Below are positions 4,298 to 50,960 of a DNA stretch of 64,000 bases, one piece after another. Source of the DNA: Candidatus Parcubacteria bacterium (GTDB taxonomy: Bacteria; Patescibacteriota; Patescibacteriia; Patescibacteriales; UBA12075). Both the position numbers and the translations under genes were made by a program. Numbering within the stretch: position 1 is the stretch's first letter; the number at the start of each line of letters is the position of its first letter. The stretch covers positions 7,275 through 71,274 of the forward strand of contig PKTK01000012.1 of NCBI GenBank assembly GCA_002869165.1, written 5' to 3'. Under the pieces are notes generated by a model that made no database searches, had not been told where the DNA came from, and saw only the letters and a list, made by a program, of their open reading frames with translations.

Positions 4298-4298
4298 T

Positions 4299-6412: not shown

Positions 6413-6622
6413 ATGGCAGAAAACGGAATGCATGAAATAAAATGCAAAGACTCTGAAGGTAAAACTTTTAGTAGATTTTTTGGAAGGAAAATAAATGCTA
6501 ATAAGGCAATAAGGCACTGGGTTGATCAGCACAATCTTCACAAAGCAGAATATCTTGGAGCTACAAATCAAATTGGCGCCTATCCGCCAGATGACCCAAG
6601 ATATGGTGAAGAATCCTGGTAA
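6413..6622 (+). CDS. hypothetical small protein
   Basis: AGGAG RBS. 69 aa. First gene of a small operon divergent from the TrmB regulator. Confidence 0.5.
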   Translation: MAENGMHEIKCKDSEGKTFSRFFGRKINANKAIRHWVDQHNLHKAEYLGATNQIGAYPPDDPRYGEESW

Positions 6623-6654
6623 AGTTTAAACAAATATATTAAAAGGAGATAAGC

Positions 6655-10459: not shown

Positions 10460-12289
10460 TTATGTGATTTCCGGTTTTTCACCAAGAAGTTTTTCAAACT
10501 CTTCTTTTTCAATTGTCTCTTGCTTTAGCAGTAAATCAACTATTTTTTGTAATTCTTCTTTTTTATCTCTAATGATTTCATCGGCTTTTTTAACTGCTCG
10601 ATCAATAAATTTAGAAATTTCAGCGTCAATCTGTTCAGCTATTTTTTCAGAATAATCTTTTTGTTCGTGAATCTCACGACCCAAAAATATCATTTCTTCC
10701 TTTTGCCCAAATGTTCTTGGTCCAAGCTCATCTGACATACCAAAGTCAGTTATTAATTTTCTAGCTGTTTGAGTAGCTCGACGTAAATCAGAAGTAGCCC
10801 CAGTAGTTACTTCATTGTAAATATACTTCTCTGTTAAAAATCCAGCCAATAAAACTGACATCTCTTCTAAGTATTCTGACTTGGTGTGCATATGCTTGTC
10901 TTGACTAGGAAGTTTGAGAGTATAACCACCAGCCCGACCACGAGCAATAATTGATATCTTGTGAACTGGATCAGTGTTTGGCAAAAAATGTGCCACCAAA
11001 GCATGTCCTGCTTCGTGATAAGCTGTTATCTCTCTTTCTTTTTTGGTAATCACTCTTGACTTTCGTTCTGGACCTAACATAGTTTTTTCAATAGCTTCAA
11101 AAAGTTCTTCCATTTCAATGGTTTTGCGATTCTTCCTGGCTGTTAAAATAGCGGCTTCATTTAAAAGATTAGCTAAATCAGCACCAGAAAACCCGGGAGT
11201 TCTTTCAGCGATTCTTCTAAGCTCGACATCTTTTGATAATGGTTTTTTCTTGGCGTGAATTTTAAGTATTGCTTCTCTGTCAGCAATATCAGGATTATCA
11301 AGTATTACTTGTCTGTCAAAACGACCAGGTCTAAGAAGAGCTGGATCCAAAACGTCTGGTCTGTTAGTTGCTGCCATTACTATCACATTGGTATGAGGAT
11401 CAAAACCATCCATTTCAACCAATATTTGATTCAAGGTTTGTTCACGTTCATCATGTGATCCCCCTAGACCAGCACCTCTACGTCTACCAACAGCATCAAT
11501 CTCATCAACAAATACAATACAAGGGGAATTCTTTTTGGCCTTCTTGAATAAATCTCTAACTCTACTCGCACCGACACCAACAAACATCTCAACAAACTCA
11601 GAACCCGAAATATGAAAGAAAGGTACACCAGCCTCTCCGGCCACTGCTCGAGCCATTAGAGTTTTTCCTGTTCCTGGGCTACCAAGAAGCAATACACCAC
11701 GAGGAATACGAGCTCCGAGGTCTAAAAACTTTTTTGGATTGCGTAGAAATTCAACTACCTCGCTAAGCTCTTCTTTTGCTTCTTTTACTCCAGCTACATC
11801 TTTGAAGGTCACTTTATTCTTTTCGTCTTTATTGAACTCCTTGGCACCTGATTGACCAAACATAAGCGCTCTAGAATTAGCTCCTTGAATACTACGCATC
11901 ATGAAATAAATAAATACACCAATCAGCAAAAAAGGCAAAAGGAATGGTAAAATACTTCCCAAAACATAAGATGCTCCTTCATTTTCCCTTATATCAATAT
12001 TTATTTTGGTTGATTTTTCTGGCTCAACACCGTAATTCTTAAATAGCTCTGACAAAGACTCACCAGTTTCTTTTTTCACAACCTCCTTAGTATCATCATG
12101 TAGAGTTACAACCATTTTTGAACCTTCTACTACCACTTCTTTGACCTGTTCATTATTGACCTGTGTAATAAATTCCTGAATTCCTACTCTTTCTGGTTCT
12201 GTGCTAAAACCTGAAAAAGATGAAAAAACCACCGCAATTAACAAAAAAGCGGCTAATATTATTAAAAAATTCTTTAGTAAATTTCCCAT
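10460..12289 (-). CDS. ftsH: ATP-dependent zinc metalloprotease FtsH
   Basis: GPPGTGKT Walker A, DEIDA Walker B, HEAGHAL zinc site, N-terminal TM pair. Confidence 0.95.
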
Positions 12290-31643: not shown

Positions 31644-31733
31644 TTTACTAATTGAAAGAGGTCTATCCGGCAACTGACATAAACCAAGTTTTCAAAAATA
31701 AAATATCAATATCAGATCTTTAATCATAGGGCT

Positions 31734-31781
31734 CTGTAATAGTGTCATCTATAGTGTACACTATAGATGACACTATTACAG
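31734..31781. repeat. 48-bp perfect zero-spacer palindrome
   Basis: CTGTAATAGTGTCATCTATAGTGT|ACACTATAGATGACACTATTACAG, verified base by base. Confidence 0.9.
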
Positions 31782-31841
31782 ATATGATATTGAATGCCTA
31801 ATACAAAAAAACAAGCTCTTTCGAGCTTGTTTTTATATTCT

Positions 31842-32026
31842 GAGCGGGTAACGGGAATCGAAGTGGCGGAAGCCACACACCATCACTTATTTATGTTTTT
31901 TTATCTTAAATTCAATAATCTTTTATTTTTATATTCTATTATTTAAATACGCTTCTCAATCAGATTCATTACCGAAACTCACTCAGAAATAACAAAACAG
32001 CTCTGTTCGAGCTGTCTTGTTATTTC
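31842..32026 (-). mobile_element. cargo-less mini-insertion at the tRNA-Gly 3' end (element C)
   Basis: 31842-31862 is 21/21 identical to 32029-32049 (tRNA T-loop to 3' end), offset 187 bp. A hairpin GTGGC-TTCC-GCCAC (tRNA orientation; 31863-31876) abuts the ghost copy. A terminator follows each copy. Confidence 0.5.
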
Positions 32027-32101
32027 TGGAGCGGGTAACGGGAATCGAACCCGTCTATCCACCTTGGCAAGGTGATGTAATAGCCACTATACCATACCCG
32101 C
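32027..32101 (-). tRNA. tRNA-Gly (anticodon GCC), CCA encoded
   Basis: Reverse complement: GCGGGTATGGTATAGTGGCTATTACATCACCTTGCCAAGGTGGATAGACGGGTTCGATTCCCGTTACCCGCTCCA. The cloverleaf and T-loop GTTCGATTC are intact. Confidence 0.9.
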
Positions 32102-32282: not shown

Positions 32283-32744
32283 ATGCCAGTACTAGCAATA
32301 AACAAAAGAGCGAAATTTGATTATGAAATCATCTCATCTCATGAGGCTGGGGTTGTTTTGTTTGGGCATGAAGTTAAATCTATTAAAACTAGAAAGCCAA
32401 GCATGAAAGGCTCTTTTGTTACTATTAAGTCTAGTGGTAAAAATGCTGAATTATTTTTGACCAATTGCCATATCTCTCTTTATGATAAGACTACTACTGT
32501 AGAAAACTACAATCCCGAAAGACCAAGAAAACTTCTAATGCATAGAAAAGAGATTGATAAATTAATTGGCAAAAAACAAGAACAAGGACTGACCCTGGTG
32601 CCGATAAAAATATATACCAAAGGCAATCTGATTAAACTTGAGTTCGGAGTGGGTAGAGGAAAAAAGAAACATGATAAGCGTGAAGATATAAAAAAGAGAG
32701 ATACAGACAGACAGATCAGACGAGTAATGAAAGAAAGAAGGTAA
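32283..32744 (+). CDS. smpB: SsrA-binding protein SmpB
   Basis: NKRAKFDYEI...GHEVKSIK...L.NCHISLY...RPRKLLMHRKEI. Confidence 0.9.
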   Translation: MPVLAINKRAKFDYEIISSHEAGVVLFGHEVKSIKTRKPSMKGSFVTIKSSGKNAELFLTNCHISLYDKTTTVENYNPERPRKLLMHRKEIDKLIGKKQEQGLTLVPIKIYTKGNLIKLEFGVGRGKKKHDKREDIKKRDTDRQIRRVMKERR

Positions 32745-32849: not shown

Positions 32850-33237
32850 GGGGATGCTGGGTTTCGATAGAGAGACTATCATTTTGCATTCGAGATGAGT
32901 TCGTGGGAGTCTCATAAAAACTTTCACACCTAAATAAGTGCAAAAAATGTACTAGCAAAAGCTAAAGCTGCTTTCAGCATGCCAGCTTTTGCACCTGTTG
33001 TCGCTTAAAATTGCCACAACCATCCGACTTCTTGATGTCTAGTAGGGAAGACCCGGGTGTCATATCACTAGACTGGACCCGAGTGTGCGGTTAACTTTGG
33101 TCGAGATTTATCAAACTGCTCGCTGTTTATTTTTTTGTTTGGTTTTTAGATAAACAGTTAAATCACAAACTAATCTAGTCTTCGTAAAATTGTAAAATGT
33201 AACTTTCTAGACGCGAGTTCAACTCTCGCCATCTCCA
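32850..33237 (+). ncRNA. ssrA: tmRNA (SsrA)
   Basis: 5' GGGGATGCTGGGTTTCGA. 3' T-arm GCGAGTTCAACTCTCGC plus acceptor CATCTCC-A with the G3:U pair. Candidate tag ORF 32940-33008 is AKNVLAKAKAAFSMPAFAPVVA*. Adjacent to smpB. Confidence 0.9.
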
Positions 33238-33238
33238 C
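33216..33238 (+). repeat. attL core (part of the functional tmRNA 3' end)
   Basis: Identical to 41857-41879. Confidence 0.85.
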
Positions 33239-34418
33239 AATCAGAAGCAGAACCGAAAGGTTCTGTTTTTGGTTTATTGTTAGCATTAAACTGGACTCCT
33301 AATGACTTCATAATATCTACAAATTGAGCCTTGTTTATTTGCTCACTGTCCATATACTGTCCTTTTTTAGACAAAAGCTTGATTGAGTCCTCTAAAGTTG
33401 AAGGTGAAAGATGGGCGTATCGCATCGTAGTGGAGACACTGCTGTGTCCCATTAACTTTTGAATAACGACTATTGGACAGCCTTTCATCGCCAGATGACT
33501 GGCAAAACTGTGACGAAGGGCGTGCCACATAATCTTTCTGTCTTCCTTATTTTTTAGGTCTAAATTGCTTATAGCTTTTTTTAATGCCCTACGAGCGAGG
33601 TTTTCCTCAAGAAAGTTTCCATTTTTGTCTGTAAAAACAAAACCTTTTGATTTTTTCCTTCTTTCAAATATTTCACGAACCTCATAATCAAAAGGAATAT
33701 GTCTTTCCTTGCTGTTTTTTGGCACTCCTAATATATTTCGGTAGAAAGACTTTCTGACTGAAATAACATTCGTCTCAAAATTTATATCTGACCAACTTAA
33801 TGCACGAATTTCGCCATAACGAAGTCCTGTTCGCAAAACAAGCAATATCATATCTTTTAACATCCCATCAGTTGAACTTAATAATAAATCACTTTCTTCA
33901 AATGAAAGAAAATCATAATCTTGTGGAGGGACTTTTAAAAGTTTTATTTTAGGTTTCTTTTCAAGTTCGCTCCACTCAACCGCAAATTTAAGTATCGTGT
34001 TTAGAACAGTGATGTGTTCATTGATAGTCTTGTTGGCTAATCCCTTATTTTTGTTTAATGCCTTAAACTCTTCTATATTTAAACTTGTAATTAAATCCAG
34101 TTTTTTCTTTCCAAAAAAGGGGATGAGGTGCTTATTGAGAATGCTTGCCCTACCACGCACTCCTGAAATTTTACAATTATTCTTCACATAAACTTCGTGC
34201 CATTTCCAGGCAAATTTTTCAAATACTTCAACTTCCTTTTGCACTTTCTTAACAAAAGGATTTTCACCCTTTACCAATTTTTGCATTATCAATCTTTCAA
34301 AAGCTAAAGCTCCGTTTCTACTATTTTCAGGAGACTTCTTTCTGTATCTTTTACCTTGGTAACGAATATCAATGAACCACTTATTATTGGTGGTGTGTTT
34401 ATTTTTTATTACTGCCAT
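33219..34418 (-). CDS. tyrosine-type site-specific integrase
   Basis: Motifs: TGLRYGEIRAL (Arg I), HALRHSFASHL (H-x-x-R), GHSSVSTTMRYAHL (catalytic Tyr). The start is taken at MAVIKNK.... The last codons run into attL. Confidence 0.9.
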   Translation of the reverse strand: MAVIKNKHTTNNKWFIDIRYQGKRYRKKSPENSRNGALAFERLIMQKLVKGENPFVKKVQKEVEVFEKFAWKWHEVYVKNNCKISGVRGRASILNKHLIPFFGKKKLDLITSLNIEEFKALNKNKGLANKTINEHITVLNTILKFAVEWSELEKKPKIKLLKVPPQDYDFLSFEESDLLLSSTDGMLKDMILLVLRTGLRYGEIRALSWSDINFETNVISVRKSFYRNILGVPKNSKERHIPFDYEVREIFERRKKSKGFVFTDKNGNFLEENLARRALKKAISNLDLKNKEDRKIMWHALRHSFASHLAMKGCPIVVIQKLMGHSSVSTTMRYAHLSPSTLEDSIKLLSKKGQYMDSEQINKAQFVDIMKSLGVQFNANNKPKTEPFGSASDCGDGES

Positions 34419-34614
34419 ATACATCTTCAATACTGTCAATATTAAAACTATTTTTGACCTTATCAAGATTAAAACGGATTTGTCTGCCGACTTTAAAAAA
34501 AGGAATTTTGCGTTCTGTTACAAGACGATAAACAGTTGTAACAGAAACTTGCAACTCATCAGCAAGTTCTTCACCCTTTAAAAAATCTTTAGTTTTATTA
34601 TATTCAGTATTCAT
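34399..34614 (-). CDS. excisionase / MerR-AlpA-type HTH DNA-binding protein
   Basis: LKGEELADELQVSVTTVYRLVTERKIPFFKVGRQIRF. Lies immediately upstream of and overlapping the integrase. Confidence 0.8.
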   Translation of the reverse strand: MNTEYNKTKDFLKGEELADELQVSVTTVYRLVTERKIPFFKVGRQIRFNLDKVKNSFNIDSIEDVYGSNKK

Positions 34615-34704
34615 TACAATTTTTAAGGAGCAACATAGAGCCGACGGGTGATGTCGGGTGGACTATGTCGCAACCTTATCACAATTTTTATTAAATTCAA
34701 ATAT

Positions 34705-35580
34705 CTAATTTCTATTTAAATATTTTTCTAAAATTTTCTCCATTTCTCTTTTTTCTTCCTCTGTAATCTCTACTGATTTATTTATATCTGCAATTACATC
34801 CAAAAAATCATTTTCAGCCAAATTTTCATTCATTATACTACCTCTTTTATTAAGTTTATTGTAAAAATCAATAATGGTAATTATACTTTCATTTTCCAGA
34901 AATTTTTTAATTTCATTTTTATAGTCATCAACCAGCTCCCAGTCGGATTTTTTAATAAAATTTATATCATAATTTGAATGTATTAAATCAATTAAGTATA
35001 AATGCTTTTGAATGTGTTTAATTGCTTTTACTGTGTTTACTAATTTTCTTTGAAAAATAATATTTGGCTGGTTGTTTGGCTCAAGCTCTTCTGGCTCAAC
35101 ACCTTGAGGCGAAAAATAATCAATAAGCTTGATTACATCAAAACCTAAATAATTTTTATCATCAAAAATTTCTTCTATTTTTTTGAACACCCTGTCAGCA
35201 TCCTCTTGGTCTAAACTTTCATTCAATAAATTATAAATTTTCTCTAAATTATTTTCTTCTTTTCTTAATAAAATAAGTTTTACATCAAGCCCAATTATAA
35301 AAGTGTTTAAACTATTTAAAGCTGATTTATAATTTAAATATGCGGTTTGTAAATCCAGGATTATATAAGTAAAACTATTATAAAAAGCAATTAGCTTATT
35401 ATATTCTTCAACTTCTCTTGGGGTGGTGCAAATACCATTCTCCAGCCTCTCTTGCTCTAAAACGCTTATTATTCGCTCTCCACCATCAGTAACTGAATTA
35501 TTATTGGCAAACAATAACTCCACTTTCTCTTTAAAGGGTAAATTTTTTGATAAATTTTTAAAATCAATTTTGCTCTTCAT
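34705..35580 (-). CDS. hypothetical island protein
   Basis: 291-aa ORF. No motif recognised. Confidence 0.55.
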   Translation of the reverse strand: MKSKIDFKNLSKNLPFKEKVELLFANNNSVTDGGERIISVLEQERLENGICTTPREVEEYNKLIAFYNSFTYIILDLQTAYLNYKSALNSLNTFIIGLDVKLILLRKEENNLEKIYNLLNESLDQEDADRVFKKIEEIFDDKNYLGFDVIKLIDYFSPQGVEPEELEPNNQPNIIFQRKLVNTVKAIKHIQKHLYLIDLIHSNYDINFIKKSDWELVDDYKNEIKKFLENESIITIIDFYNKLNKRGSIMNENLAENDFLDVIADINKSVEITEEEKREMEKILEKYLNRN

Positions 35581-35584
35581 ATGT

Positions 35585-35962
35585 TTAGTTTAATTTTATT
35601 TTCTTTTTAACCACTATTGCTTCAATGGTTTCAATTTTTGACTTGATAGATATTTGCTCATAAGCTTTTAGTAGTTGCCCAGAAAGAACTCCGATGCAGT
35701 TGGCAGTTTTGTTATCCATTCTTCCTCCTCTAACCTCATTTATTACTTCGTTTAGTAGAGAAATTATATCCTCTGCTTGTTTAATCTCTATGGGATGTAA
35801 GTTGTGTTTAATTAAATTTTTATTTGCAATACCACCATTTCTGCGAGCTTGCATTTTTTCTTTTTCAGATATTTTTTCACTGTGCCAAAAACAGTGCTGT
35901 TCTCCTTTCAATGCCCGTGATAAACATTGACCTCCTTTTTCTTTTTTGTGTTCACATTGCAT
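35585..35962 (-). CDS. hypothetical island protein with an N-terminal C-x10-C-x12-C-x2-H knuckle
   Basis: MQCEHKKEKGGQCLSRALKGEQHCFWH resembles the CxxKxxxGxxCxxxAxxGxxxCxxH motif common in phage and plasmid proteins. Confidence 0.55.
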   Translation of the reverse strand: MQCEHKKEKGGQCLSRALKGEQHCFWHSEKISEKEKMQARRNGGIANKNLIKHNLHPIEIKQAEDIISLLNEVINEVRGGRMDNKTANCIGVLSGQLLKAYEQISIKSKIETIEAIVVKKKIKLN

Positions 35963-36080
35963 ATAAGTTAACTTATGGGGGGGCTATATTGTTACTCTAT
36001 TGTTTGTTTATTTAACCTTAAAGGAGATAACTATATAGTTCCTATATTTAGTATTATAGTAATATACTACTGTTCTATAA

Positions 36081-36425
36081 TTAAAAATTAATTTTATCCA
36101 CTTCAATTTCCGTGTCATTATCACGAATACTTTTGCCTATTAAATAGTTATCATACTCTTCGCTAAACTGATTTAATGCTTTTTTTGTCAATTCGTCCCA
36201 AAATATTTTATCTTCTGTAAAAAATATTTTCTTCCATTTTTTGTCCCCATAAGGCACGGACGGAGGGTAAAGAACAAATTGTTGGGTATTAGTTTCAAAT
36301 TTTGATTTACGAATTGTAAATCCGTTGATTTCAAATTGAGCAACTAACATTGTTCCGATTGCTGGCAATTTTTCATCATCACGATAAGTAAATTTAAAAT
36401 TTACATCCTCAATGCTAATTTTCAT
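36081..36425 (-). CDS. hypothetical island protein
   Basis: 114-aa ORF. Confidence 0.5.
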   Translation of the reverse strand: MKISIEDVNFKFTYRDDEKLPAIGTMLVAQFEINGFTIRKSKFETNTQQFVLYPPSVPYGDKKWKKIFFTEDKIFWDELTKKALNQFSEEYDNYLIGKSIRDNDTEIEVDKINF

Positions 36426-36583
36426 AAAAATATATTAATAATTAAAAAACCTATACTAATTATATTATTAGTATAGGCTATAAATATTGGCTAAAAATAA
36501 TAGGTTACATTATTTATTTTTTTAATCAATTTTGTAAATTATTAATAAATTCCACTATAATAAATAATCTAACGGGTTACATT

Positions 36584-37597
36584 TTAGGTTACATTCTTTT
36601 TTCTGTGCTTATTAACCTTTCTTGCATTTCTTTTCCTTTTGCATTCTGGTCTAATTTTTTCCGAACAAACTTCACCTGAATACCTTCTTCCATCTGGATT
36701 AAATAAAGGTAAAATTCTATTACATTCTGCACATCTTCGGACTTCATTTTCAGAAAGATAAAGTAATTCATAATATAAAAGCGATTTATAGTCATTAAAT
36801 ACTATTACACAATCCTCTCTTTCGTCAAAGGTGCATCTTTTAGTAAAGTTTTCAATGTTTTTTTTATTTATTTTTTTAGTTTTTAGTGCATTATTATTCA
36901 GAACTCCATCACACATCTCTACTAATTCCCATATTGCCTTGTTGCAATTAAAAATTTTCTTATACTTTAAATCTTGTCTTAAAAATTCAACATCCTCTTC
37001 TGTTATTTGGTTTAAATATATTTTTTCTTCATATTTTTTTATTATTTTGTATATTTTATTTGCCTCATCTTGTGTAATTCCAAAAATATCTAAATTATCT
37101 TTTTTTTCAAAAACATCAGTAAAGCTATACATTCTCCATTCCAGCAAGCCACCATAATCTACATACTCCACATTTATAGCAGGCATTGTCTTGTATGTAA
37201 TATCATCTTTCATATTGCTAAAATATTGTTTAATAGAGTCGCTACCCTTGGGCATTAAAGACCCTTTTAAGTATACTTGATTTCCAGCATTGTGATATTC
37301 CACAGAAACTAAAAAAACCAAGGAAAATTGCTTGTCATAAGGAGGTGATAGTTCGTAATTAAAAATATCACAAGAAACAGTAATATCACAAACTTCATTT
37401 ACTATCCTTTCAAGCTCGCCCTCATTTTTAAGGTATAATTCTACCAAGGAATTATCTTCCTTTTCTATATCTAAATCTTCTAATTTTAATTCGCTTGCTT
37501 GCCATCTCGGTATTATAGCAATACATTTATGTTCAACATAACCCAAATTTTCATTAATAACATCTCTTGCCCTTTTTGTTGTATACTTTTTAGCCAT
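36584..37597 (-). CDS. hypothetical island protein with a C-terminal Cys cluster and basic tail
   Basis: 337 aa, ending ...RRCAECNRILP...GEVCSEKIRPECKRKRNARKVNKHRKK. Confidence 0.6.
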   Translation of the reverse strand: MAKKYTTKRARDVINENLGYVEHKCIAIIPRWQASELKLEDLDIEKEDNSLVELYLKNEGELERIVNEVCDITVSCDIFNYELSPPYDKQFSLVFLVSVEYHNAGNQVYLKGSLMPKGSDSIKQYFSNMKDDITYKTMPAINVEYVDYGGLLEWRMYSFTDVFEKKDNLDIFGITQDEANKIYKIIKKYEEKIYLNQITEEDVEFLRQDLKYKKIFNCNKAIWELVEMCDGVLNNNALKTKKINKKNIENFTKRCTFDEREDCVIVFNDYKSLLYYELLYLSENEVRRCAECNRILPLFNPDGRRYSGEVCSEKIRPECKRKRNARKVNKHRKKNVT

Positions 37598-37803
37598 TTT
37601 AAAAATTAAAAAACTATGTCATTATAGCCGAGAAGCTATTCAGAGACGCAGAAAGGTTTAACTCCTCTGGACAAGAAGAGTAATCTCTAAATTAAATCTC
37701 GGCTACAAGGACAGAGCCATAATTTATTTCCTTTCTGCTTTGTTAATGTTTAAATGAAGTGTCCAGTTTCACTATTATTAATATATCAATTATATTATTA
37801 TAG

Positions 37804-38667
37804 TCAATTATTTTTAATTGTATTTTTAATAATAAATTCTAAATACTCTTTGTTATTGCCAAAAACTGTTTTTGCACTTCTAACTGTTCTTTTGATTATA
37901 TTATCAAACTGCCTTTCGGTTATATCAATATATTTTATATCGTTATTGGTAAGTAGGTCCCAGTTTGCATACAAAACAATATTAGAAGTTAAAGGCAAAG
38001 TAAACTCTATGTCTTTATGTCCAAACCCAGCTCTTGCACCAATTGCGTTAGGTCCAAATTTTTTTTCTCTTTCAGGGCTACATATATGTGCTGGATTATC
38101 AGAGGATATAAAATTTTTATCCTTTGGTGCTGTTAATAGCTTCCAGTGCATATTATATAAATAATTTGCAACATACAAAGAAGTGTTCATTGAACTATTT
38201 GCGAAGTGCGAATTAAAATTTTCTAAACCTTCTTTAATTTCGTCTATGCTAACACCCTTACCAGAAGAGGCTGGAGGCAAATAACTATCACTGTTATTTA
38301 CAGAAAAATTTTTTGAGCTTTCTGCAATATCATTCAAAAATCCCCTAAACTGCTCTCTATTTAATCTAATTCTGTTAAAAATTGTTGATGTATAAATGGA
38401 TAGCCATAATTTATCGGTGGTGTTAATTGGTTCTTTATTATTTATTTTATTTTTAATAATTTTTGAATATTCACTTTCTAATTCCGACAAACTCTCCTCA
38501 ATATCAAGAGAGCCATTAACAGTATTATAATGACCTTCTTTAAATTTATTTAGCGGGTTAGTTTTATAAATCCTGTCGTCCTCTTCTAAAACCCAAATTT
38601 TACCATCTTTATCGGCAAAATTTTTCTGGTAAGTTACACTAATGTAATGGTGATAGACTTTTTTCAT
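37804..38667 (-). CDS. DUF4238-family protein
   Basis: N-terminal HHYISVTYQKNF and C-terminal W..L......FISSDNP are signatures I associate with DUF4238. Confidence 0.6.
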   Translation of the reverse strand: MKKVYHHYISVTYQKNFADKDGKIWVLEEDDRIYKTNPLNKFKEGHYNTVNGSLDIEESLSELESEYSKIIKNKINNKEPINTTDKLWLSIYTSTIFNRIRLNREQFRGFLNDIAESSKNFSVNNSDSYLPPASSGKGVSIDEIKEGLENFNSHFANSSMNTSLYVANYLYNMHWKLLTAPKDKNFISSDNPAHICSPEREKKFGPNAIGARAGFGHKDIEFTLPLTSNIVLYANWDLLTNNDIKYIDITERQFDNIIKRTVRSAKTVFGNNKEYLEFIIKNTIKNN

Positions 38668-38718
38668 AATTTTAGATTATTATATGTAGTTACTATATTA
38701 TTTTTTATATAATTAAAC

Positions 38719-38766
38719 AAGAAAAAACCTGCGAAAGCGTTGTTTTGCTATCGCAGGTTGTGTTGT
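38719..38766 (-). terminator. terminator, copy 1 of a duplicated ~48-bp module
   Basis: On the minus strand, CCTGCGA...TCGCAGG is followed by TTTTTTCTT. It nearly matches 40122-40169. Confidence 0.6.
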
Positions 38767-38782
38767 ATAAAGTTTCAAGTTT

Positions 38783-39436
38783 TTAACTTATGATATTTTT
38801 TGCATTATGTATAAATGCTTTTAATTTTTCATTGCTTTTAAATCCGCTTTCTCCTTTCGTGCCAGAGTTGGCATCAACACCGAAAGGTTTTACTGCCTGG
38901 ATTGCCTCATTAACATTTTCAGGATTAAGTCCTCCTGCTAAAAAGACAGGCTTTCTGTATTTTTCTACTATCTCACGACTTAAATCCCAATCGTGTGTTA
39001 TTCCGGTTCCTCCAACTTGGTCAGTTTCAAGGTTCACGGTATCCAACAATATTGCATCTACGGCATTTAAATATCCATAACCATTAGCAATAGATTTTTC
39101 ATTTACCACGTGCAGGGATTTAATCAGTTTTATATATGGTATTTTCTCCCTGATAATTTGGGCGTCATCTGGCGTGCTGTCACCGTGCAACTGAATAGTT
39201 GTTACTCCGATGAATTGAGCAAGCGAAACAATTTCTTCATTATCAACAAGATGGGTTACAAATACGGATGAACAAAATGGAGGCAAATGACTCACTATTT
39301 TTTTAGCAAATTCTTTATCAATAAAATCAGTTGATGAATGTTTTTGCCCAACCAGCAAACCGATTGCATCAGCACCATAGAATACTGCCATCAATGCATC
39401 CTCTGTGCTTTTTATACCGCATACTTTAACTCTCAT
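38783..39436 (-). CDS. trpF: phosphoribosylanthranilate isomerase
   Basis: MRVKVCGIKSTEDA...GADAIGLLV...TIQLHG...GGTGITHDW...FLAGGLNPENV...PFGVDANSG matches canonical TrpF along its full length. AAGGAG RBS. The ORF-track N-terminal extension is rejected. Confidence 0.9.
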   Translation of the reverse strand: MRVKVCGIKSTEDALMAVFYGADAIGLLVGQKHSSTDFIDKEFAKKIVSHLPPFCSSVFVTHLVDNEEIVSLAQFIGVTTIQLHGDSTPDDAQIIREKIPYIKLIKSLHVVNEKSIANGYGYLNAVDAILLDTVNLETDQVGGTGITHDWDLSREIVEKYRKPVFLAGGLNPENVNEAIQAVKPFGVDANSGTKGESGFKSNEKLKAFIHNAKNIIS

Positions 39437-40019
39437 TTTTTTCTCCTTTTGTTCTATGTTTAAGAATAAGTTCAAGTAAAATTTCAGCATACCAGTCTGC
39501 GACTTCAACCATTGCATCGGTTGCTTCCTTGTCATTGGAATAAAGTCTCTTGCCAAAGTTATCAATTTTTCTTTCGCATTTTGAAAAAAGAATACTAACA
39601 AGAGAGGAATGGTGGTTGCATAGACAAAATTCAATATATGCAATCATTGCTCTTTTGAGAAATTCTGGAGACTCTGCATTAATACAGTCAATAAAATGTT
39701 CTGCTATTGCGTTAGCCACTTCTTTGTCATCGCCAGCTTCTGTGAAATGGGCATAAGGCAACAAAAAAAGCATTTCAGTTTCTTTGTTGAAATCAATCAC
39801 TTCCTCAAGATAGCCCTTAACTTCAACTATTGCCTTTTTCGCTAAATCACTCAAAATGCCTGGATAATGCTCTTTATCTAAATACACAGCAAGAGCTTCA
39901 ACACCATCACCTCCGTTATTAAAAACAGATGCTTCCATAATCATCTTTTTGTTCAATCCAATAATATATGGTATTTCGTGCCATTTGATTGCTCCAACTC
40001 CACCGCCTATTGTAAGCAT
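39426..40019 (-). CDS. hypothetical island cargo protein
   Basis: 197 aa with a GGAGGAGG RBS. Overlaps the trpF start by 11 nt. Confidence 0.6.
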   Translation of the reverse strand: MLTIGGGVGAIKWHEIPYIIGLNKKMIMEASVFNNGGDGVEALAVYLDKEHYPGILSDLAKKAIVEVKGYLEEVIDFNKETEMLFLLPYAHFTEAGDDKEVANAIAEHFIDCINAESPEFLKRAMIAYIEFCLCNHHSSLVSILFSKCERKIDNFGKRLYSNDKEATDAMVEVADWYAEILLELILKHRTKGEKNES

Positions 40020-40121
40020 AATTTCCTCCTCCAGTTTGAATATTTTGTATTACAAATTATTATCAAGGTTCAAATATGATTATATATGTTTATCATATTT
40101 TATATAAAAAATCAAGAATAA

Positions 40122-40169
40122 AAGAAAAACCTGCTAAAGCGTTGTTTTGCTCTTCGCAGGTTGTGTTGT
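40122..40169 (-). terminator. terminator, copy 2 of the duplicated ~48-bp module
   Basis: AAGAAAAACCTGCTAAAGCGTTGTTTTGCTCTTCGCAGGTTGTGTTGT compared with 38719-38766. Confidence 0.55.
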
Positions 40170-40184
40170 TTGTGGGTTTATTGG

Positions 40185-40415
40185 TTAAAGCCACCAAAAG
40201 GTTTTGTTGTTTTTGGCTAACCCTTTTCCAATTTGCTCACGGACATCTGCAAATGAATGAAGGGCGAAAAGATTGAAAGTTTTTCCATCTCTTTCTATGC
40301 TACGACCGGTGTCACTCACTTCCATAGCGTCAAAATCAATCATTAGCATTCCGCCGTCTTTTACAGACATTATCCGTAGTTCGTCAAAATTTGCGTCTAC
40401 TGCTATTACAGCCAT
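40185..40415 (-). CDS. hypothetical small island cargo protein
   Basis: 76 aa with an AAGGAGGG RBS. Confidence 0.55.
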   Translation of the reverse strand: MAVIAVDANFDELRIMSVKDGGMLMIDFDAMEVSDTGRSIERDGKTFNLFALHSFADVREQIGKGLAKNNKTFWWL

Positions 40416-40427
40416 TGAAGCCCTCCT

Positions 40428-40931
40428 TTATTCATCGTAAAGATAATTAGCCAACACGGCGAATATCTCGTTGTTGTTTCTTTTGGCGATGTCTTCTGCG
40501 TTTATAAGGGACAACAAATCCAGTTCAATGGCGACAGCCATCATCACGGCTTCATCGGCTTGTTCAGGCAGTCCAGAAAAGGAAAGGATGTAGTTGTCGG
40601 CAACGATAGCTCCGCCCCATTTCCCGTTATCAGGGTCACGGCTTTCATAGCTGGTCATATGACCAAGCTCAAAGTGTGTAGAAATAAGCCTTGCTCCTTT
40701 CTCTTCGGAGTTGTAGGAGTAAGCTGACCATTTTTCTTGCGGAACAGGTTTGCCGACAATACTTACAAACTCAAGTCTTTTAGCGCCAAGGCTGTAAATA
40801 CTGACATAGCCTCCTTTTTTGAGGATGCCTTTACTTGTTGCAAGTTCTGGGTAATTTTTAACAAGAATGTTAACAATCTCCCCGGTTTTTTCAATTACCT
40901 TTTCAACAACTTTTGCTGTAAATTCGTTCAC
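40428..40931 (-). CDS. hypothetical protein with a GlcG/DUF336-like C-terminal motif
   Basis: GTG start with an AGGAGGG RBS. WGGAIVADNYILSFSGLPEQADEAV parallels the DUF336 GGA(I/V)..G..IGAIGVSG....DE motif. The call is weak. Confidence 0.5.
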   Translation of the reverse strand: MNEFTAKVVEKVIEKTGEIVNILVKNYPELATSKGILKKGGYVSIYSLGAKRLEFVSIVGKPVPQEKWSAYSYNSEEKGARLISTHFELGHMTSYESRDPDNGKWGGAIVADNYILSFSGLPEQADEAVMMAVAIELDLLSLINAEDIAKRNNNEIFAVLANYLYDE

Positions 40932-40943
40932 GCTTCCCTCCTG

Positions 40944-41252
40944 TTATTTAGATTTTTCGGTTTTCATTTCACCAGCCGAGAAAAACCCCTCAACCGCCAT
41001 TGTTTCAGTGTCAATATCAATATTGGCTTCTTTGAGCTTTTCCTTGATTTCATTGCGTGTTTTTTCTTCGGTGGAACAGATGCGGATGTAAGGTGCTGAT
41101 TTGACACTGCTATCAAAAGTCCACACAGTAGATGGGACAAATGTAACAATTGCGTCTTTCTGCAACCCCATATCGTGCATTACCAGTCCGATAATTGAAG
41201 TAAGGTTGCTTGCCTTATTTTCATCCATTCCAAAAATCATAATGTTTGGCAT
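40944..41252 (-). CDS. hypothetical protein starting Met-Pro (tautomerase-superfamily-like N-terminus, speculative)
   Basis: 102 aa beginning MPNIMIFG.... Confidence 0.5.
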   Translation of the reverse strand: MPNIMIFGMDENKASNLTSIIGLVMHDMGLQKDAIVTFVPSTVWTFDSSVKSAPYIRICSTEEKTRNEIKEKLKEANIDIDTETMAVEGFFSAGEMKTEKSK

Positions 41253-41305
41253 TTTCTTTCTCCTAATAAGTCTGTGTTTAAATAATGATAAATAATAAAT
41301 AATAA

Positions 41306-41560
41306 TTACAAAATAGATTTTTTTATTTCAATTTTTGGATTTGACAAGGTGATTACCATTTCAAATTCTAATGTTTTTAACATTTTAATCAAGGTTTCAA
41401 AAGATAAATTTTTTTTACCACCTTCAACAAGTGCAATATAATTTGAGGTTAGCTCCATTTTATCAGCCAGTGTTTTTTGAGATATGCCGTTGTTTATTCT
41501 TGCAGTCTTTAATAAGATGCCCATATCTTTCATTGCTTGTATCTTTATTTTTTCTATCAT
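41306..41560 (-). CDS. XRE-family HTH transcriptional regulator
   Basis: LKTARINNGISQKTLADKMELTSNYIALVEGGKKNLSFETLIKM. Confidence 0.8.
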   Translation of the reverse strand: MIEKIKIQAMKDMGILLKTARINNGISQKTLADKMELTSNYIALVEGGKKNLSFETLIKMLKTLEFEMVITLSNPKIEIKKSIL

Positions 41561-41856
41561 TTAACTCTCCTTTTTCGCTTTATATAATTGTAAAATGAAC
41601 AAAAATTAATATTACAGTATATCACGAAAACTACAAAAAGTCAACTATTTTAGCTGACTCTGAAATTTAATCCCTAATGTCACTTCCTCTATGTTGCATT
41701 GAGCATTTCACTGCCCAAATACTGTCCACGAAGTGGTAATTAATGATTAAATGTGAATAGTAGTGACGACTTCTGCAAATCGGTTTTTTCTTTAAGTTAA
41801 AGCAAATTATTGAATTTTGTTTAACCTTGCAGAAATACTCAATTTGCCTCTTTTAC

Positions 41857-41879
41857 AGTTCAACTCTCGCCATCTCCAC
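41857..41879 (+). repeat. attR core (displaced native tmRNA 3' end, continues ..CCA plus native terminator)
   Basis: Identical to 33216-33238. Followed by an 18-bp-stem terminator at 41881-41922. Confidence 0.85.
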
Positions 41880-42068
41880 CATAATAAAACAGTCATTTGA
41901 AATGGCTGTTTTATTATGGTGTAAATGGTGGGTATGTTTAAATTGCTATGATTATACGCATTATTATCACAAAAAAAACAAATAGCAGGTAGACGGTACA
42001 AAACAGAAAAATTAAAAATATTTTGAGGGGGTGAGGCTTCTGCCTCTCTACTCTCACCATCTCCACCA
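41880..42068 (+). mobile_element. cargo-less mini-insertion at the tmRNA 3' end (element B), in tandem with the island
   Basis: A degenerate third copy of the tmRNA end, TCTACTCTCACCATCTCCACCA 42047-42068 (offset 187 bp), is preceded by TTGAGGGGGTG 42023-42033 and hairpin GAGGC-TTCT-GCCTC 42033-42046. Confidence 0.5.
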
Positions 42069-42139
42069 ACATAAAACAACCACACAAAGTGGTTGTTTTA
42101 TTTTATAAGACTATTGAAAATAAAGTTACTATAAATTAT

Positions 42140-49306: not shown

Positions 49307-50488
49307 ATGAATAAATTTCTAATATTTTCAATTCGAGTCGGGGCATTTCTAGTGCTTTGTTTTTTTATTCTTCAAACACTTGCTTTTTTTGGAGTAAAAT
49401 ATGAGCTAACAAAAGTTTTGGGTGAAATTGATGACAACTCTGCAGAATACAATAAGATTGCAAAAGAAAATGCCAAATTAATTGAAGATAACTACAAATT
49501 GATTAAAAATTCAAGAAATTTAAACACTTTTTAAACAACAACGAAAAACAAGTTTGCTTTACCAAAAAATATTTCTATTTATGGGCCAAGAGCAGATGAA
49601 AACTGGTGTAAAATAAAAGTTGCTAGCCAGTATAATGACTTTACAACCAATTCAATCTTCAAAGCCTATCGAGATTCAAAATCAGAAATACTTCTAAACA
49701 ATATGTTGCTTGCTTTGGAATTGCGACATCCAAACAAAGATGAATTTTCCAATGATTTGCTTACCTGTCAAAATACCACCGAAAGTTTTGTTCCTGAGGA
49801 TTTGGAAGAATTATTTTTTGAAATAAATGATAAAAATCTATATTCATGGCAAAATGGCGAACCATGGCAGATAATTTCCAAGGCAATAAAGAAGGACAAA
49901 GATCTTATTTACAAAACTTCTGAACTGAGCGGAGTTCAGCCAAGACTTTTAGTTTCTGTTGCTATTGTTGAACAACTTAGATTGTACTACACTCAACGAG
50001 AACTTTTTGAAAAAGTCTTTAAGCCTTTAGAAATATTGGCTAATGCCAATAAAATGGCCTGGGGGATAATGGCTATCAAAGAACGAATGGCTATTGAAAC
50101 CGAAGACCATCTTCATGATATTAATTCTGATTTTTATTTAGGTTCTTCAACCGAAGCATTACTTGACTATAAGGAGGGAGATGATAAAGGAAGAATCCGT
50201 TATAATCGCTTGACTGATAATAGTTCGCATTATTGGTCTTATCTTTATGGCTCTTTGATTATTGCCCAACTTGAGAATCAATGGGAAAAAGCTGGATATT
50301 CTATCAAGTATAGACCTGAGATTATTGCCACCTTATTTAACATAGGATTTTCAAAATCCAAACCAAAAGACAATCCACAAGTCGGGGGCTCAACTCTTCA
50401 AATAGAAGGAGATAAATATTTTTTCGGATCACTGGCCTTTGAATTTTACTATTCTGGAGCTTTAATAGACGAATTTCCTTTTGAATAG
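49307..50488 (+). pseudogene. membrane-anchored protein with a single in-frame TAA (49532-49534); alternatively two genes, 49307-49534 and 49703-50488
   Basis: Both ORFs are in the same frame. 56 stop-free codons link the TAA to the first Met of the downstream ORF. There is no RBS or alternative start in between. Confidence 0.5.
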
Positions 50489-50636
50489 ACAATACTACTA
50501 TGTAAAATATATCAATTACACCCTATTTATAAAAATACAAAAAATTTAAATTCATTGCTTTGACAAAATAAAATAAATAACATATAATATTCAAAGTAAT
50601 ACCTCTTTAGACAGGTATTTATTTTTTTCAAATCTA

Positions 50637-50720
50637 GCCCAGGTGGTGGAATTGGTAGACACGAGGGACTTAAAATCCCTTGGCCGCAAGGCTGTGCGAG
50701 TTCGATTCTCGCCCTGGGCA
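50637..50720 (+). tRNA. tRNA-Leu (anticodon UAA), long variable arm, CCA not encoded
   Basis: GCCCAGGTGGTGGAATTGGTAGACACGAGGGACTTAAAATCCCTTGGCCGCAAGGCTGTGCGAGTTCGATTCTCGCCCTGGGCA. Confidence 0.9.
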
Positions 50721-50901
50721 CAAAAAGGAGAAAACTGAAAAGTTTTCTTTTTTTGTGAAGCCAGGGTGGAAGCGAACTCGCATATGAAGTGCAAAGACTT
50801 CCATTAAAAAAAGGCTCATAAAAAAATAATATTAAAATTGAAAACAAAAAAAATTCTTGAGGGGGTGCCCTTTTCAGGGCTTCGATTCTAGCCCTGGGCA
50901 C
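50721..50901 (+). mobile_element. cargo-less mini-insertion at the tRNA-Leu 3' end (element A)
   Basis: 50881-50901 repeats 50701-50721 (20/21), offset 180 bp. TTGAGGGGGTG 50857-50867 and hairpin GCCCT-TTTC-AGGGC 50867-50880 abut the ghost copy. Terminators at 50729-50755 and 50909-50928. Confidence 0.5.
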
Positions 50902-50960
50902 ATAAATACCTTCTTTTGAAGGGTTTTTACATAAATGTTCTTATAAAAAGGAGAGGAATA

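Follow-up and report, generated by a model that had tools for sequence, protein, structure and literature searches.

Gene-less units of about 0.18 kb that repeat the 3' ends of tRNA and tmRNA genes in Patescibacteria: candidate integrative micro-elements

Why should an intact tRNA-Leu(UAA) gene be followed, exactly 180 nt further on, by a second copy of its own 3' end with no gene in between? The question arises in a 64-kb stretch of DNA from a Candidatus Parcubacteria bacterium (the whole stretch is called the window here), in which similar intervals lie beside a tRNA-Gly gene and within a series of copies of the tmRNA 3' end. The original prediction was that the three intervals are miniature integrative elements mobilised in trans. 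A gene-less family with a patchy distribution was indeed found, and the in-trans helper is putative. The interpretation that we favor, and hold to be on balance probable, is that the three intervals are lineage-restricted, gene-less, non-autonomous integrative micro-elements of Patescibacteria, about 170 to 190 bp long, mobilised in trans by a candidate recombinase. The intervals are referred to as units A, B, and C. The features of unit A, at the tRNA-Leu gene, are as follows.

50560-50588: perfect sigma-70-type promoter of tRNA-Leu(UAA)
50637..50721, plus strand: intact tRNA-Leu(UAA) (ARAGORN, Rfam)
50701..50721, plus strand: X_L, the left direct repeat, from the T loop to discriminator plus 1, within the functional gene
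about 50727..50755, plus strand: proximal terminator hairpin and T run, the apex of a long X/X' palindrome
50755..50781, plus strand: X', a diverged inverted copy of the T arm and acceptor 3' strand
50785..50791, plus strand: left TGA box, TGAAGTG (evidence includes family comparison)
50792..50856, plus strand: A/T-rich spacer
50857..50866, plus strand: right box TTGAGGGGGT (family consensus TGAKGGKGT)
50867..50880, plus strand: hairpin P2, GCCCT-TTTC-AGGGC, directly against the ghost
50881..50901, plus strand: X_R, the ghost copy, 20/21 identical to X_L
50909-50928: distal terminator, 3' of the ghost

The repeat of 50701-50721 at 50881-50901, the two terminators, and the right box followed by a hairpin that abuts the ghost had all been predicted, and each was seen again. 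The "GTGAA..GGTGG box" that had been described behind the first terminator is present (50755-50781), but it is not a free-standing box; it is a diverged copy, in inverted orientation, of the T arm and acceptor strand. Reading the unit as a plain attP remnant leaves this copy unexplained. The proximal and distal terminators of unit A are unrelated to each other. The spacer differs in sequence between units, and no promoter-like site was found in the spacer or elsewhere within unit A.

The tmRNA gene had been placed next to position 41880. It actually lies at 32850-33238, and 41859-41880 is a ghost of its 3' end (attR) at the far end of an integrated island. The locus and unit B are laid out as follows.

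32283-32744: smpB, just upstream of the tmRNA gene
32850..33238, plus strand: tmRNA gene, ssrA (ARAGORN, Rfam)
33239..41856, no strand assigned: integrated island of 8.6 kb, of the ordinary kind
33219-34466, minus strand: tyrosine integrase of the island, ending inside the tmRNA 3' end
41859..41880, plus strand: X1, first ghost of the tmRNA 3' end
41884..41915, plus strand: terminator hairpin (evidence includes inverted repeat I4)
41916..41943, plus strand: X', a diverged inverted copy of the tmRNA T arm and acceptor strand (evidence includes inverted repeat I4)
41949..41955, plus strand: left TGA box, TGATTAT (evidence includes family comparison)
42023..42046, plus strand: right box TTGAGGGGGT and hairpin GAGGC-TTCT-GCCTC
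42047..42068, plus strand: X2, a second, more decayed ghost (evidence includes direct repeats D1 and D6)
42070-42104: terminator 3' of X2, homologous to the terminator after X1

Unit C reads on the minus strand.

32027..32101, minus strand: intact tRNA-Gly(GCC) (ARAGORN, Rfam)
32027-32049, minus strand: X_L, within the tRNA gene
31985..32026, minus strand: proximal terminator
31961..31984, minus strand: X', GAGTGAGTTTCGGTAATGAATCTG on the tRNA strand
31950..31960, minus strand: left TGA box, ATTGAGAAGCG on the tRNA strand (evidence includes family comparison)
31863..31886, minus strand: right box GTGATGGTGT and hairpin GTGGC-TTCC-GCCAC
31840..31862, minus strand: X_R, the ghost (evidence includes direct repeat D13)
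about 31808-31836, minus strand: distal terminator, homologous to the proximal one

The layout is the same in all three units: X (the RNA gene from the T loop to the 3' end), a terminator, X', the left TGA box, an A/T-rich spacer of 54-73 nt with 11-35% G+C, a right box with the consensus TGAKGGKGT, and a covarying 5-bp hairpin, P2, set against the ghost of X. The direct repeats are identical at 20/21, 22/23, and 19/22 positions, at spacings of 180, 187, and 187 nt, and the genes are intact by ARAGORN and Rfam. Same-layout units had been predicted for tRNA-Gly and the tmRNA series, and both were found at a spacing of 187 nt (ghost 31840-31862 relative to 32027-32049, and 41859 relative to 42046). 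Within the 64 kb the exact box TTGAGGGGGTG has just two occurrences, both in units. In units B and C the repeat outlasts the RNA-gene segment and continues through the homologous terminators (D6: 56 nt at 79%). Unit B (41859-42068) lies beyond the integrase island, so that the order of the locus is tmRNA gene, island, unit B, and X1 is shared: it is both attR of the 8.6-kb island and unit B's left repeat. The ends of the island have no right box, P2, or X' and are unrelated to the unit ends. Open reading frames that overlap units are only spurious; the units are gene-less, with repeat spacings of 168-187 nt. In a scan with Rfam only tRNAs and tmRNA passed the gathering threshold. The best sub-threshold match to units A and B was a long-hairpin microRNA model, at 29 bits against 73 (A) and 26 against 150 (B).

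A search with a box, hairpin, and T-loop pattern gave 77 matches in 185,579 species genomes. The hairpin had at least 4.5 of 5 pairs in 10 of the 77, and all 10 were in Patescibacteria; among these good-hairpin matches from the 185,579 genomes, none was a unit in another phylum. Wherever enough upstream DNA was available, the match lay 168-187 nt 3' of an intact tRNA and repeated the 3' end of that tRNA. The layout, with this same spacing, was found at at least 10 different tRNA or tmRNA genes in at least 7 other Patescibacteria genomes or metagenome contigs. The further units are at Leu(taa), at two Leu(caa) loci (one with two tandem units), and at Leu(cag), Val(cac), Lys(ttt), Ile(tat), Pro(ggg), Ala(cgc), Gly(tcc), one unidentified tRNA, and a second tmRNA. 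Viral contigs scanned with two patterns yielded only chance matches in coding DNA and no units.

One other class-1 unit (L087) was found among 42 tmRNA genes in 741 kb around smpB of relatives, and no relative examined carried a class-1 unit 3' of tRNA-Gly(gcc). At that gene L086 has a solo left arm only, and L087 and L089 have class-3 units. The distribution of units is patchy among these distant relatives (46-72% SmpB identity). Solo left arms, which consist of X, terminator, X', and left box and lack the right end, occur twice, in L060 and at tRNA-Gly(gcc) of L086. The short class-2 and class-3 units of relatives resemble pseudo-tRNA copies with hairpin insertions, and this leaves room for an origin by duplication. 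For example, X' lies directly against a third copy in the class-3 units of L087 and L089, and the ghost in L073 is a whole pseudo-tRNA. The proposal that further copies exist in related genomes held, with a family at at least 10 RNA genes and a patchy presence in relatives, and the proposal that the three intervals form one family is sustained by a fixed architecture that recurs in Patescibacteria. As judged from sequence, the three intervals are not chance.

Two parts of the units appear to be maintained as structures. In P2, 98.8% of cells are paired, and compensatory changes affect 4 of the 5 pairs in 19 cells. The observed covariation was reached by 0 of 500 shuffles, and slid controls were far lower. 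The other structure is the palindrome formed by X and X', which are separated by the terminator (about 30-45 nt); a long X/X' hairpin is predicted in 17/17 units (z = -3.7 to -8.7). The mean duplex energy of X' is -20.7 kcal/mol with its own X and -13.7 kcal/mol with the X of other units. This best pairing with its own X indicates that X' matches its own tRNA. When X' in tRNA genes was scored by duplex-energy z-scores, it was significant in 18 of 118 genes, most of them ghost-bearing, and thus it is not a general feature of tRNA terminators. X' also complements the 5' strand of the T stem, which lies outside the duplicated X, and in L060 and L063 the inverted copy reaches the variable arm. The palindrome is therefore complete only when the unit is integrated, which is a poor fit to a folded free attP.

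The changes in X' are not evenly spread. Relative to a perfect complement, C>T (37/105) and A>G (16/94) make up the majority, and both kinds of change leave a G·T pair in place on the tRNA-sense strand. Transitions the other way are rare (G>A, 14/160; T>C, 4/61). Wobble-preserving changes thus number 53/199, versus 18/221 for the opposite transitions (Fisher p = 4.5e-7). The sense strand is predicted to fold more stably than the antisense strand in 16/17 units with RNA parameters and in 15/17 with DNA parameters, and its advantage is greater with the RNA parameters. As far as sequence comparison can tell, this strand asymmetry points to a folded single strand. Ghosts are identical to the functional copy at 21/21 positions in 8 of 12 units, and X' diverges from the perfect complement at about 27% of aligned positions. 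Near-identical ghosts together with a diverged X' fit an element that inserted recently with an X' that had evolved beforehand. The right box, P2, and left box are kept across unrelated tRNAs and genomes and, with the exception of L060, are not derived from the local tRNA. A-tract phasing in the spacers showed no periodicity that would be a sign of intrinsic bending.

Evidence on mobility came from an independent assembly of the same strain, ERZ794999. Contig NODE_10 begins with window positions 50835-50880 (spacer, right box, and P2) joined to 50701 onward, and it is identical to the window for 1000 nt from that point. Contig NODE_49 ends at window position 50755. Together these two contig ends are the de Bruijn signature of a loop. 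The two X contexts share no exact match longer than 12 nt, well short of k = 55. A circular or excised junction had been proposed as something to look for; the right-to-left junction was found, and it marks either tandem copies or a circle, as contigs alone fit both. Slippage between the 21-nt repeats, giving a tandem duplication, is an alternative source of the junction. The tRNA-side contig of ERZ794999 has no branch to an empty site, and unit A is contiguous and single-copy in two other assemblies. No right-to-left junctions were seen at units B and C, where contigs are contiguous; L168 (4x coverage) just begins inside ghost C.

Searches for an empty site and for an enzyme were negative within the DNA covered. 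The only other contig with the UbiA gene that flanks unit A is from the same strain and has the same single copy, and no UbiA homologues were present in the Patescibacteria loci examined. An all-versus-all comparison of open reading frames from 14 unit-bearing sources (13 loci and the window) returned no recurrent neighbor other than the smpB anchor. A phmmer search for homologues of the island integrase in the Patescibacteria loci examined gave one distant match, 6 kb from a unit. No recombinase was found near units among the loci examined, and the window has a single integrase, that of the 8.6-kb island. Neither the Patescibacteria loci examined nor the viral contigs contained an autonomous element with unit arms. 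Ghosts at long range, up to 25 kb, were limited to that of the window's own island. The second, partial unit of L060 was considered as the end of a large element and rejected, as the genes downstream of it are housekeeping genes.

Entry by site-specific recombination in the T loop is the most likely route. The element would bring a terminator and its own copy of the target from the T loop to the 3' end. A crossover at the 5' edge of the T loop, or within it, would splice the element into the tRNA or tmRNA gene, and the copy carried by the element would complete a functional gene. The original 3' end would be displaced about 180 nt downstream and left as a ghost. Newer insertions would land beside the gene, and older units and islands would become distal. 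Such gene-proximal insertion would account for the order at the tmRNA locus, with the gene followed by the island and then by unit B. The element-specific parts would be the imperfect palindrome of X, terminator, and X', the left TGA box, the right TGAKGGKGT box, and the GC hairpin. In the palindrome an inverted, wobble-tolerant copy of the target would pair with X, and the covarying GC hairpin would be placed exactly at the crossover boundary. We infer that a recombinase supplied in trans may read these parts as a folded single strand in the tRNA sense, with possible parallels in the attC sites of integrons and in the attP of phage CTXphi, which is likewise folded. The target would then be specified by the nucleic acid that the element carries rather than by a dedicated integrase for each tRNA, and the A/T-rich spacer would be a linker only.

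A bolder version of this model is tentative, and we regard it as possible rather than probable. It holds that recombinase-less 0.18-kb elements integrate as folded single strands in which the X/X' hairpin mimics the T arm and acceptor of the target, next to a structural hairpin and two boxes that one host or helper enzyme reads. Target choice would reside in nucleic acid, and therefore one enzyme could serve elements for many tRNA genes. This would amount to an attC- or CTXphi-like system redirected to RNA genes, which natural uptake of DNA may have spread.

The closest described concept is that of the microCIMEs of streptococci, which are gene-less, 130-220 bp long, and flanked by att repeats of the 3' end of their target (Lao et al. 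2020, PMC7563491). The size class had been thought undescribed, a claim that these published elements contradict. MicroCIMEs occur in tandem with an integrase-bearing element, always most distal from the target gene; they are thought to depend on a recombinase from another element and are regarded as decay products (PMC7563491). They are found in Firmicutes, at the 3' ends of the protein genes rpmG, rpsI, fda, and rplL, and all those detected stood in tandem with an ICE or IME, the method being blind to solitary elements (PMC7563491). The units resemble them in lacking genes, in their spacing of 168-187 nt, and in their att-type repeats. Unit B is likewise distal to an island, whereas units A and C are solitary. 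The units differ in lying at at least 10 RNA genes in Patescibacteria and in carrying X', two boxes, and a covarying hairpin, whereas no internal architecture has been reported for microCIMEs. A deletion parent with the same att arms was not found for the units in the limited loci and viral contigs searched.

Integration into tRNA and tmRNA genes reportedly falls into sublocation classes, among them a T-loop crossover, as set out by Williams in 2002. Such tRNA and tmRNA islands are like the units in that the repeat runs from the T loop to the 3' end, the element restores the gene, a motif accompanies the distal repeat, and tandem arrays form. At the ssrA islands of Dehalococcoides, for example, a conserved element-side motif lies against the direct repeat (PMC3146451). 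However, these islands are described as kilobases long with a tyrosine or serine integrase beside attL, and the units have no gene. The inverted target copy and the boundary hairpin are features of the units that the island descriptions consulted do not mention.

CTXphi-type IMEX elements use dif as their target, and host XerCD performs the reaction. CTXphi prophages form tandem arrays, as do the units, and both CTXphi and attC sites show conservation of structure and tolerance of G·T wobble on one strand. The units are similar in that structure rather than sequence is kept and only one strand tolerates G·T wobble. They also share with CTXphi the lack of a recombinase and the inverted target-like sites around a short spacer that form a strand-specific hairpin. 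In CTXphi the two attP sites, which are oppositely oriented and separated by about 90 nt, pair as the stem of a forked hairpin in a single strand, and after integration the target site is present in one functional and two non-functional copies (PMC3089051). The units differ in that their target is a tRNA or tmRNA T arm and not dif or attI, that X' mirrors the 5' strand of the T stem, that they are 0.18 kb long without a replication gene, and that a single-stranded intermediate is putative.

One alternative is that the units are inert scars, the minimal left and right arms that remain after internal deletion of integrase islands, as in the decay of microCIMEs, and that they are immobile and functionless. 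The decayed, most distal microCIMEs of 130-220 bp are a published precedent, and unit B likewise lies beyond the 8.6-kb island; truncated solo left arms and decayed ghosts exist, and no enzyme was found near units. We nonetheless consider this alternative unlikely, because independent deletions would not yield a constant 168-187 nt and the same ordered motifs at at least 10 RNA genes. In addition, compensation in P2 and wobble preservation in X' indicate purifying selection on structure, the ends of the sole island present are unrelated to the units, a parent element with these arms was not seen in the loci searched, and there is polymorphism at the junction. Another alternative is local rearrangement, in which snap-back template switching at the palindromic terminator and the T-loop TTCGAA produced a tandem inversion duplication that was later remodelled. 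Such duplications reportedly arise by snap-back at quasi-palindromes in Salmonella, according to Kugelberg and Roth. They have the same direct, inverted, direct order of copies (X, X', X) and a first junction centered on a hairpin, which in the units is the terminator. The overrun of the inverted copy past X into the T stem and, in L060 and L063, the variable arm, the third copy or whole pseudo-tRNA in L087, L089, and L073, and the tandem arrays all agree with it. Yet a single local step would make X' and X_R equal in age, whereas X_R is typically 21/21 identical and the inverted copy is much older, about 27% diverged and wobble-biased. The boxes and P2 cross loci and genomes and do not come from the local tRNA (L060 excepted), and unit A has proximal and distal terminators that are unrelated. 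We judge local rearrangement to be improbable.

Strand-specific folding is also expected of HUH-type single-strand transposition by an IS200/IS605 TnpA, a RAYT, or an IS91-like enzyme, which would make the units palindrome-associated mini-elements cut beside P2. Palindrome-associated elements are gene-less and about 180 bp in size, as are the units. Covarying hairpins at a sharply defined end and the absence of terminal inverted repeats and of short target-site duplications also agree with such an origin. However, these families produce no 21-nt target repeat, and insertion would be expected 3' of a fixed tetra- or pentanucleotide, whereas the flanking bases vary at both boundaries. The two end hairpins should be alike, but P2 is unlike the X/X' palindrome, and no such transposase was seen in the window. 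We consider HUH transposition highly improbable. Equally doubtful, in our estimation, is a module that acts as RNA, either a sense transcript from X' to X_R that forms a tRNA-like or minihelix noncoding RNA, or a guide RNA made of the box, P2, and the 21-nt X. In the guide version a handle hairpin, a guide of roughly 20 nt, and a terminator would aim an RNA-guided enzyme at tRNA genes. The G·U-type wobble is kept on the sense strand, RNA parameters enlarge the sense-folding advantage, and a 5-bp hairpin with a 4-nt loop is followed by a 21-nt target-identical segment and then a terminator. The hairpin abutting a target-identical segment recalls Cas12-type crRNA geometry. Against both versions, unit A has no internal promoter-like site and the terminator and T run of the tRNA lie upstream of X', the spacer (54-73 nt, 11-35% G+C) is unconserved, there is no match to an Rfam family, and no repeat arrays, cas or tnpB genes, or recurrent gene lie nearby. 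A guide identical to the functional gene would also hit the host itself.

Other readings were rejected. A MITE mobilised by a DDE transposase does not fit because the sole inverted repeat, X'/X, varies with the tRNA and the duplication is at least 21 nt rather than 2-10 bp. Pairing of the two TGA boxes as a k-turn or C/D box, a T-box leader, a retron RNA, an IS110 bridge RNA, a casposon-like target duplication, and start or stop codons within the boxes also failed to fit.

If our favored interpretation of the units as integrative micro-elements is correct and they are active, they would rank with the smallest known site-specific integrative elements and would illustrate how elements of this kind survive in very small genomes with few recombinase genes. 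The inverted copy, the wobble, and the boundary hairpin suggest a recombination site for tRNA genes that is read from single-strand structure. To our knowledge, recombination of this kind is established so far only for integron cassettes and Xer-exploiting phages. If the units are scars only, they would be a compact signature of past integration events in uncultivated lineages. The units flag the 3' flanks of tRNA and tmRNA genes as insertion hot spots in Patescibacteria. Ghosts and inverted copies risk being mis-annotated as tRNA fragments, and the units break assemblies, as at NODE_10 and NODE_49.

Three RNA genes were identified in the window with both ARAGORN and Rfam, and the repeated segments and conserved parts associated with them are as follows:

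32027-32101, minus strand: tRNA-Gly(GCC)
32850-33238: tmRNA
33219-34466, minus strand: tyrosine integrase gene of an island, its 3' end inside the tmRNA 3' end
50637-50721: tRNA-Leu(UAA)
50857-50866: right box of unit A (the tRNA-Leu insert), TTGAGGGGGT
50867-50880: hairpin of unit A, GCCCT-TTTC-AGGGC, which with the right box adjoins the second copy of the tRNA segment

The segment of tRNA-Leu from the T loop to the 3' end (X) at 50701-50721 is repeated 180 nt downstream at 50881-50901 (20 of 21 positions identical), and each copy is then followed by a terminator. The original prediction described this interval accurately, with the repeat, terminators, box, and hairpin all where it had placed them, and the same arrangement that it proposed for tRNA-Gly is present on the minus strand with a spacing of 187 nt. 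Its tmRNA near 41880 was misplaced, the gene being at 32850-33238. Directly 3' of this gene is an 8.6-kb island, the far end of which is 21 nt identical to the 3' segment of tmRNA (41859-41879). Unit B (187 nt) occupies the interval between this copy and another that has decayed further (42047-42068). Thus, the order at the tmRNA locus is gene, island, unit, and native flank. The ends of the resident island are unrelated to the arms of unit B.

Other genes of the island (33219-41856) include those that encode HTH_17 (excisionase-like), DUF4238, PRAI/TrpF-like, and HTH_3 regulator proteins. Its integrase is intact in the window and in the ENA assembly and, in the same strain's JGI assembly, is divided into two open reading frames (ORFs). 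At 49532-49534 an in-frame TAA breaks a gene that in the JGI contig, which has TCA, is a continuous 393-aa ORF, a one-base difference. A perfect 50-bp palindrome (25-nt arms, zero spacer) is found at 31733-31782, just past the distal terminator of the tRNA-Gly unit, and a Logan contig of the same strain starts ca. 5 nt before its center.

In the orientation of the RNA gene, the layout is the same in all units:

X: T loop to discriminator
terminator: hairpin and T run
X': 24-28 nt, an inverted copy, with divergence, of the 3' strand of the acceptor and the entire T arm
left box: form TGAKNAWK
spacer: 54-73 nt, 11-35% G+C, unconserved
right box: TGAKGGKGT
P2: 5-bp G+C-rich hairpin with a TTYY loop
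ghost X: begins directly after P2; in most cases another terminator comes next

The predicted GTGAA..GGTGG box is present as sequence, but its identity is X', the inverted acceptor and T-arm copy. The stretch from X through the terminator to X' is a long imperfect palindrome, and when folded as single-stranded circles all 17 units examined adopted the same Y shape (z = -3.7 to -8.7 versus shuffles).

One genome per species (185,579 species) was scanned for the right box, hairpin spacing, and T loop. Only 10 of the 77 matches had a hairpin with at least 4.5 of 5 pairs, and all 10, as well as one weaker match validated by context, were from Patescibacteria, namely three Candidatus Falkowbacteria MAGs and two MAGs labeled only "Patescibacteria group". 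Wherever there was enough upstream DNA, an intact tRNA was found 168-187 nt upstream, and the sequence past the hairpin repeated that tRNA's own 3' end. The tRNAs were Leu(taa), Val(cac), Lys(ttt), Ile(tat), Pro(ggg), and Leu(caa) (two loci). In a less biased sample, comprising 80 metagenome loci (741 kb) anchored on relatives of smpB, a single contig had further units at tRNA-Leu(cag), Ala(cgc), and Gly(tcc). The closest long relative in this sample has a tmRNA unit with no intervening island. Two units stand in tandem at one locus of the family, L063. The pattern scan of viral contigs yielded no units. The family is sizeable and restricted to Patescibacteria, and the three elements originally suspected of being related are genuine members of this larger family, which spans many tRNA genes in the genome and metagenome scans.

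P2 is paired in 98.8% of cells, with compensatory changes at four of its five pairs (19 cells), a level that none of 500 shuffles reached and that slid controls fell far below. This covariation is not an effect of the hairpin filter because the matches were validated independently through their tRNA context. X' follows its own tRNA, with a mean duplex energy of -20.7 kcal/mol with its own X versus -13.7 kcal/mol with the X of other units. The commonest departures of X' from the perfect complement were C>T (37/105) and A>G (16/94), which retain G·T pairs on the tRNA-sense strand, whereas the mirror transitions were rare (G>A, 14/160; T>C, 4/61; Fisher P = 4.5e-7). Folding of X-terminator-X' was likewise more stable for the sense than for the antisense strand, in 16 of 17 units (RNA parameters) or 15 of 17 (DNA parameters). 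This asymmetry, together with the sense-strand stability, argues that the sense strand works as a folded single strand, whether DNA or RNA. Action of the unit at the RNA level is disfavored, as X' is downstream of the terminator's T run, the interior of unit A has no promoter-like site, the spacer is not conserved, and there were zero matches to Rfam families.

Snap-back replication at the terminator palindrome could generate the direct-inverted-direct order locally, with no insertion. Consistent with such an origin, X' reaches into the 5' strand of the T stem, and for two units at tRNA-Leu(caa) as far as the variable arm; furthermore, other classes of short units in relatives resemble pseudo-tRNA copies with hairpin insertions. 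However, for the class found in the window a single local step would not be expected to leave a ghost identical to the functional copy (21/21) in 8 of 12 units and an X' that departs from the perfect complement at ca. 27% of aligned positions, with changes that are constrained and strand specific. Near-identical ghosts beside a diverged X' indicate that X' is old and the duplication of X recent. Nor are the boxes and P2 derived from the local tRNA, as they are common to unrelated tRNAs and genomes, with the exception of one locus at which TGAGGG is the local T-stem strand. Local origin is further countered by the proximal terminator of unit A, which is unrelated to the distal one, and by the finding that X' was significant in only 18 of 118 genes, mostly ghost bearing, and thus is not a general tRNA-terminator feature. 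In L063 the current 3' end completes the T stem less well than either ghost, as would be expected if an element had brought in this end.

The same strain was located in several assemblies via the flanking UbiA protein. In two of them the sequence matches the window exactly and a single unit is present. The locus in ERZ794999 is divided over two contigs: NODE_49 passes through the tRNA and stops at window position 50755, and NODE_10 starts with 50835-50880 (spacer, right box, P2) joined to 50701 onward, followed by the full unit, the ghost, and UbiA (1000 nt identical). This structure indicates the existence of reads in which the right end is connected to the left end. The 55 nt at the start of NODE_10 correspond to the k-mer that is also present in the ghost context, as far as the C/A difference at X position 10. 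The longest exact match between the two X contexts is 12 bases, making an artifact of the k = 55 graph unlikely. The junction represents either a tandem duplicate or a circle, and, as read from the contig, the exchange would lie 5' of X position 10, within TTCGATTCT. No branch to an empty site was present on the tRNA-side contig of ERZ794999, and therefore simple excision at appreciable frequency is unsupported. The look-up via UbiA found no empty site in a near relative.

Mobilization in trans of miniature integrative elements, as originally proposed, is the best available explanation for these putatively mobile units and on balance a probable one, but it is incomplete. No recombinase or other recurrent gene was found near units in the window and compared loci, and no autonomous element with unit arms was found in the compared Patescibacteria loci or viral contigs. 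The presence of an inverted copy of the target and of structure specific to one strand suggests a more specific mechanism.

Elements of this size are not new, although the original prediction knew of no such elements at tRNA or tmRNA genes: microCIMEs of Streptococcus salivarius are gene-less, att-flanked, and 130-220 bp long, and they form tandem arrays with ICEs or IMEs in which they invariably hold the position farthest from the target gene (PMC7563491). They are the closest published concept, and the position of unit B matches theirs. However, microCIMEs are at protein genes, are seen as decay products, and have no reported internal architecture (PMC7563491), whereas the units are at tRNA and tmRNA genes and have a defined one. 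Dehalococcoides ssrA islands, with T-loop insertion and a conserved element-side motif abutting a 20-bp direct repeat (PMC3146451), share both features with the units. In CTXphi, two inverted dif-like sites form a hairpin in the plus strand, and integration yields one functional and two nonfunctional site copies (PMC3089051). The units are most like CTXphi in the nearby inverted target copy, strand-specific folding, lack of an encoded recombinase, and tandem arrays; they differ in target and enzyme, and their palindrome is complete only when integrated. This likeness may serve as a working analogy only. Integron attC sites are a second parallel. The architecture and distribution of the units appear to be undescribed in the literature searched.

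Other short units were observed in the Patescibacteria loci (L numbers) compared with the window, whose own units are class 1:

L143 and L144, ~11070-11470: second class
L123, ~10950-11170: second class
L111, ~3810-4420: second class
L087, 3850-4165, minus strand: third class
L089, 170-495, minus strand: third class
L073, 7560-7840, minus strand: third class
L097, 10920-11120: third class
L060, ~6600-6700, minus strand: solo left arm
L086, ~9230-9320, minus strand: solo left arm

Second-class units are ghost bearing, lie downstream of tmRNA, and have the order X', ATCGAAAGMCGGAG ... CGTGACCGA, and tmRNA 3'-end ghost. The L111 copy contains a small ORF that, judged by eye, may encode a GIY-YIG nuclease, and a similar small ORF follows tmRNA in L085. 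Third-class units are ca. 100 nt (ca. 180 nt in L073), with two in tandem in L087. Their ghost duplicates the 3' part of the tRNA, or in L073 is an entire pseudo-tRNA-Val; it is broken by G+C-rich hairpins of ca. 30 nt, and X' directly abuts the third copy. Solo left arms consist of X, terminator, X', and left box, without right box, hairpin, or ghost; in L060 housekeeping genes come next. L090 (1205-1680) has a small ORF between the tmRNA gene and tRNA-Leu(taa), putatively resembling, by eye, the four-helix-bundle proteins of rRNA intervening sequences, and a decayed tRNA-Leu ghost ca. 240 nt past tRNA-Leu(taa). In L105 (4200-4700, minus strand), a G+C-richer relative, tRNA-Asp(gtc) and a terminator are followed by GAGGGTTCGAAGGGATTCGAAGGG, a patchwork of T-arm fragments, some direct and some inverted, that is of another kind than the units.
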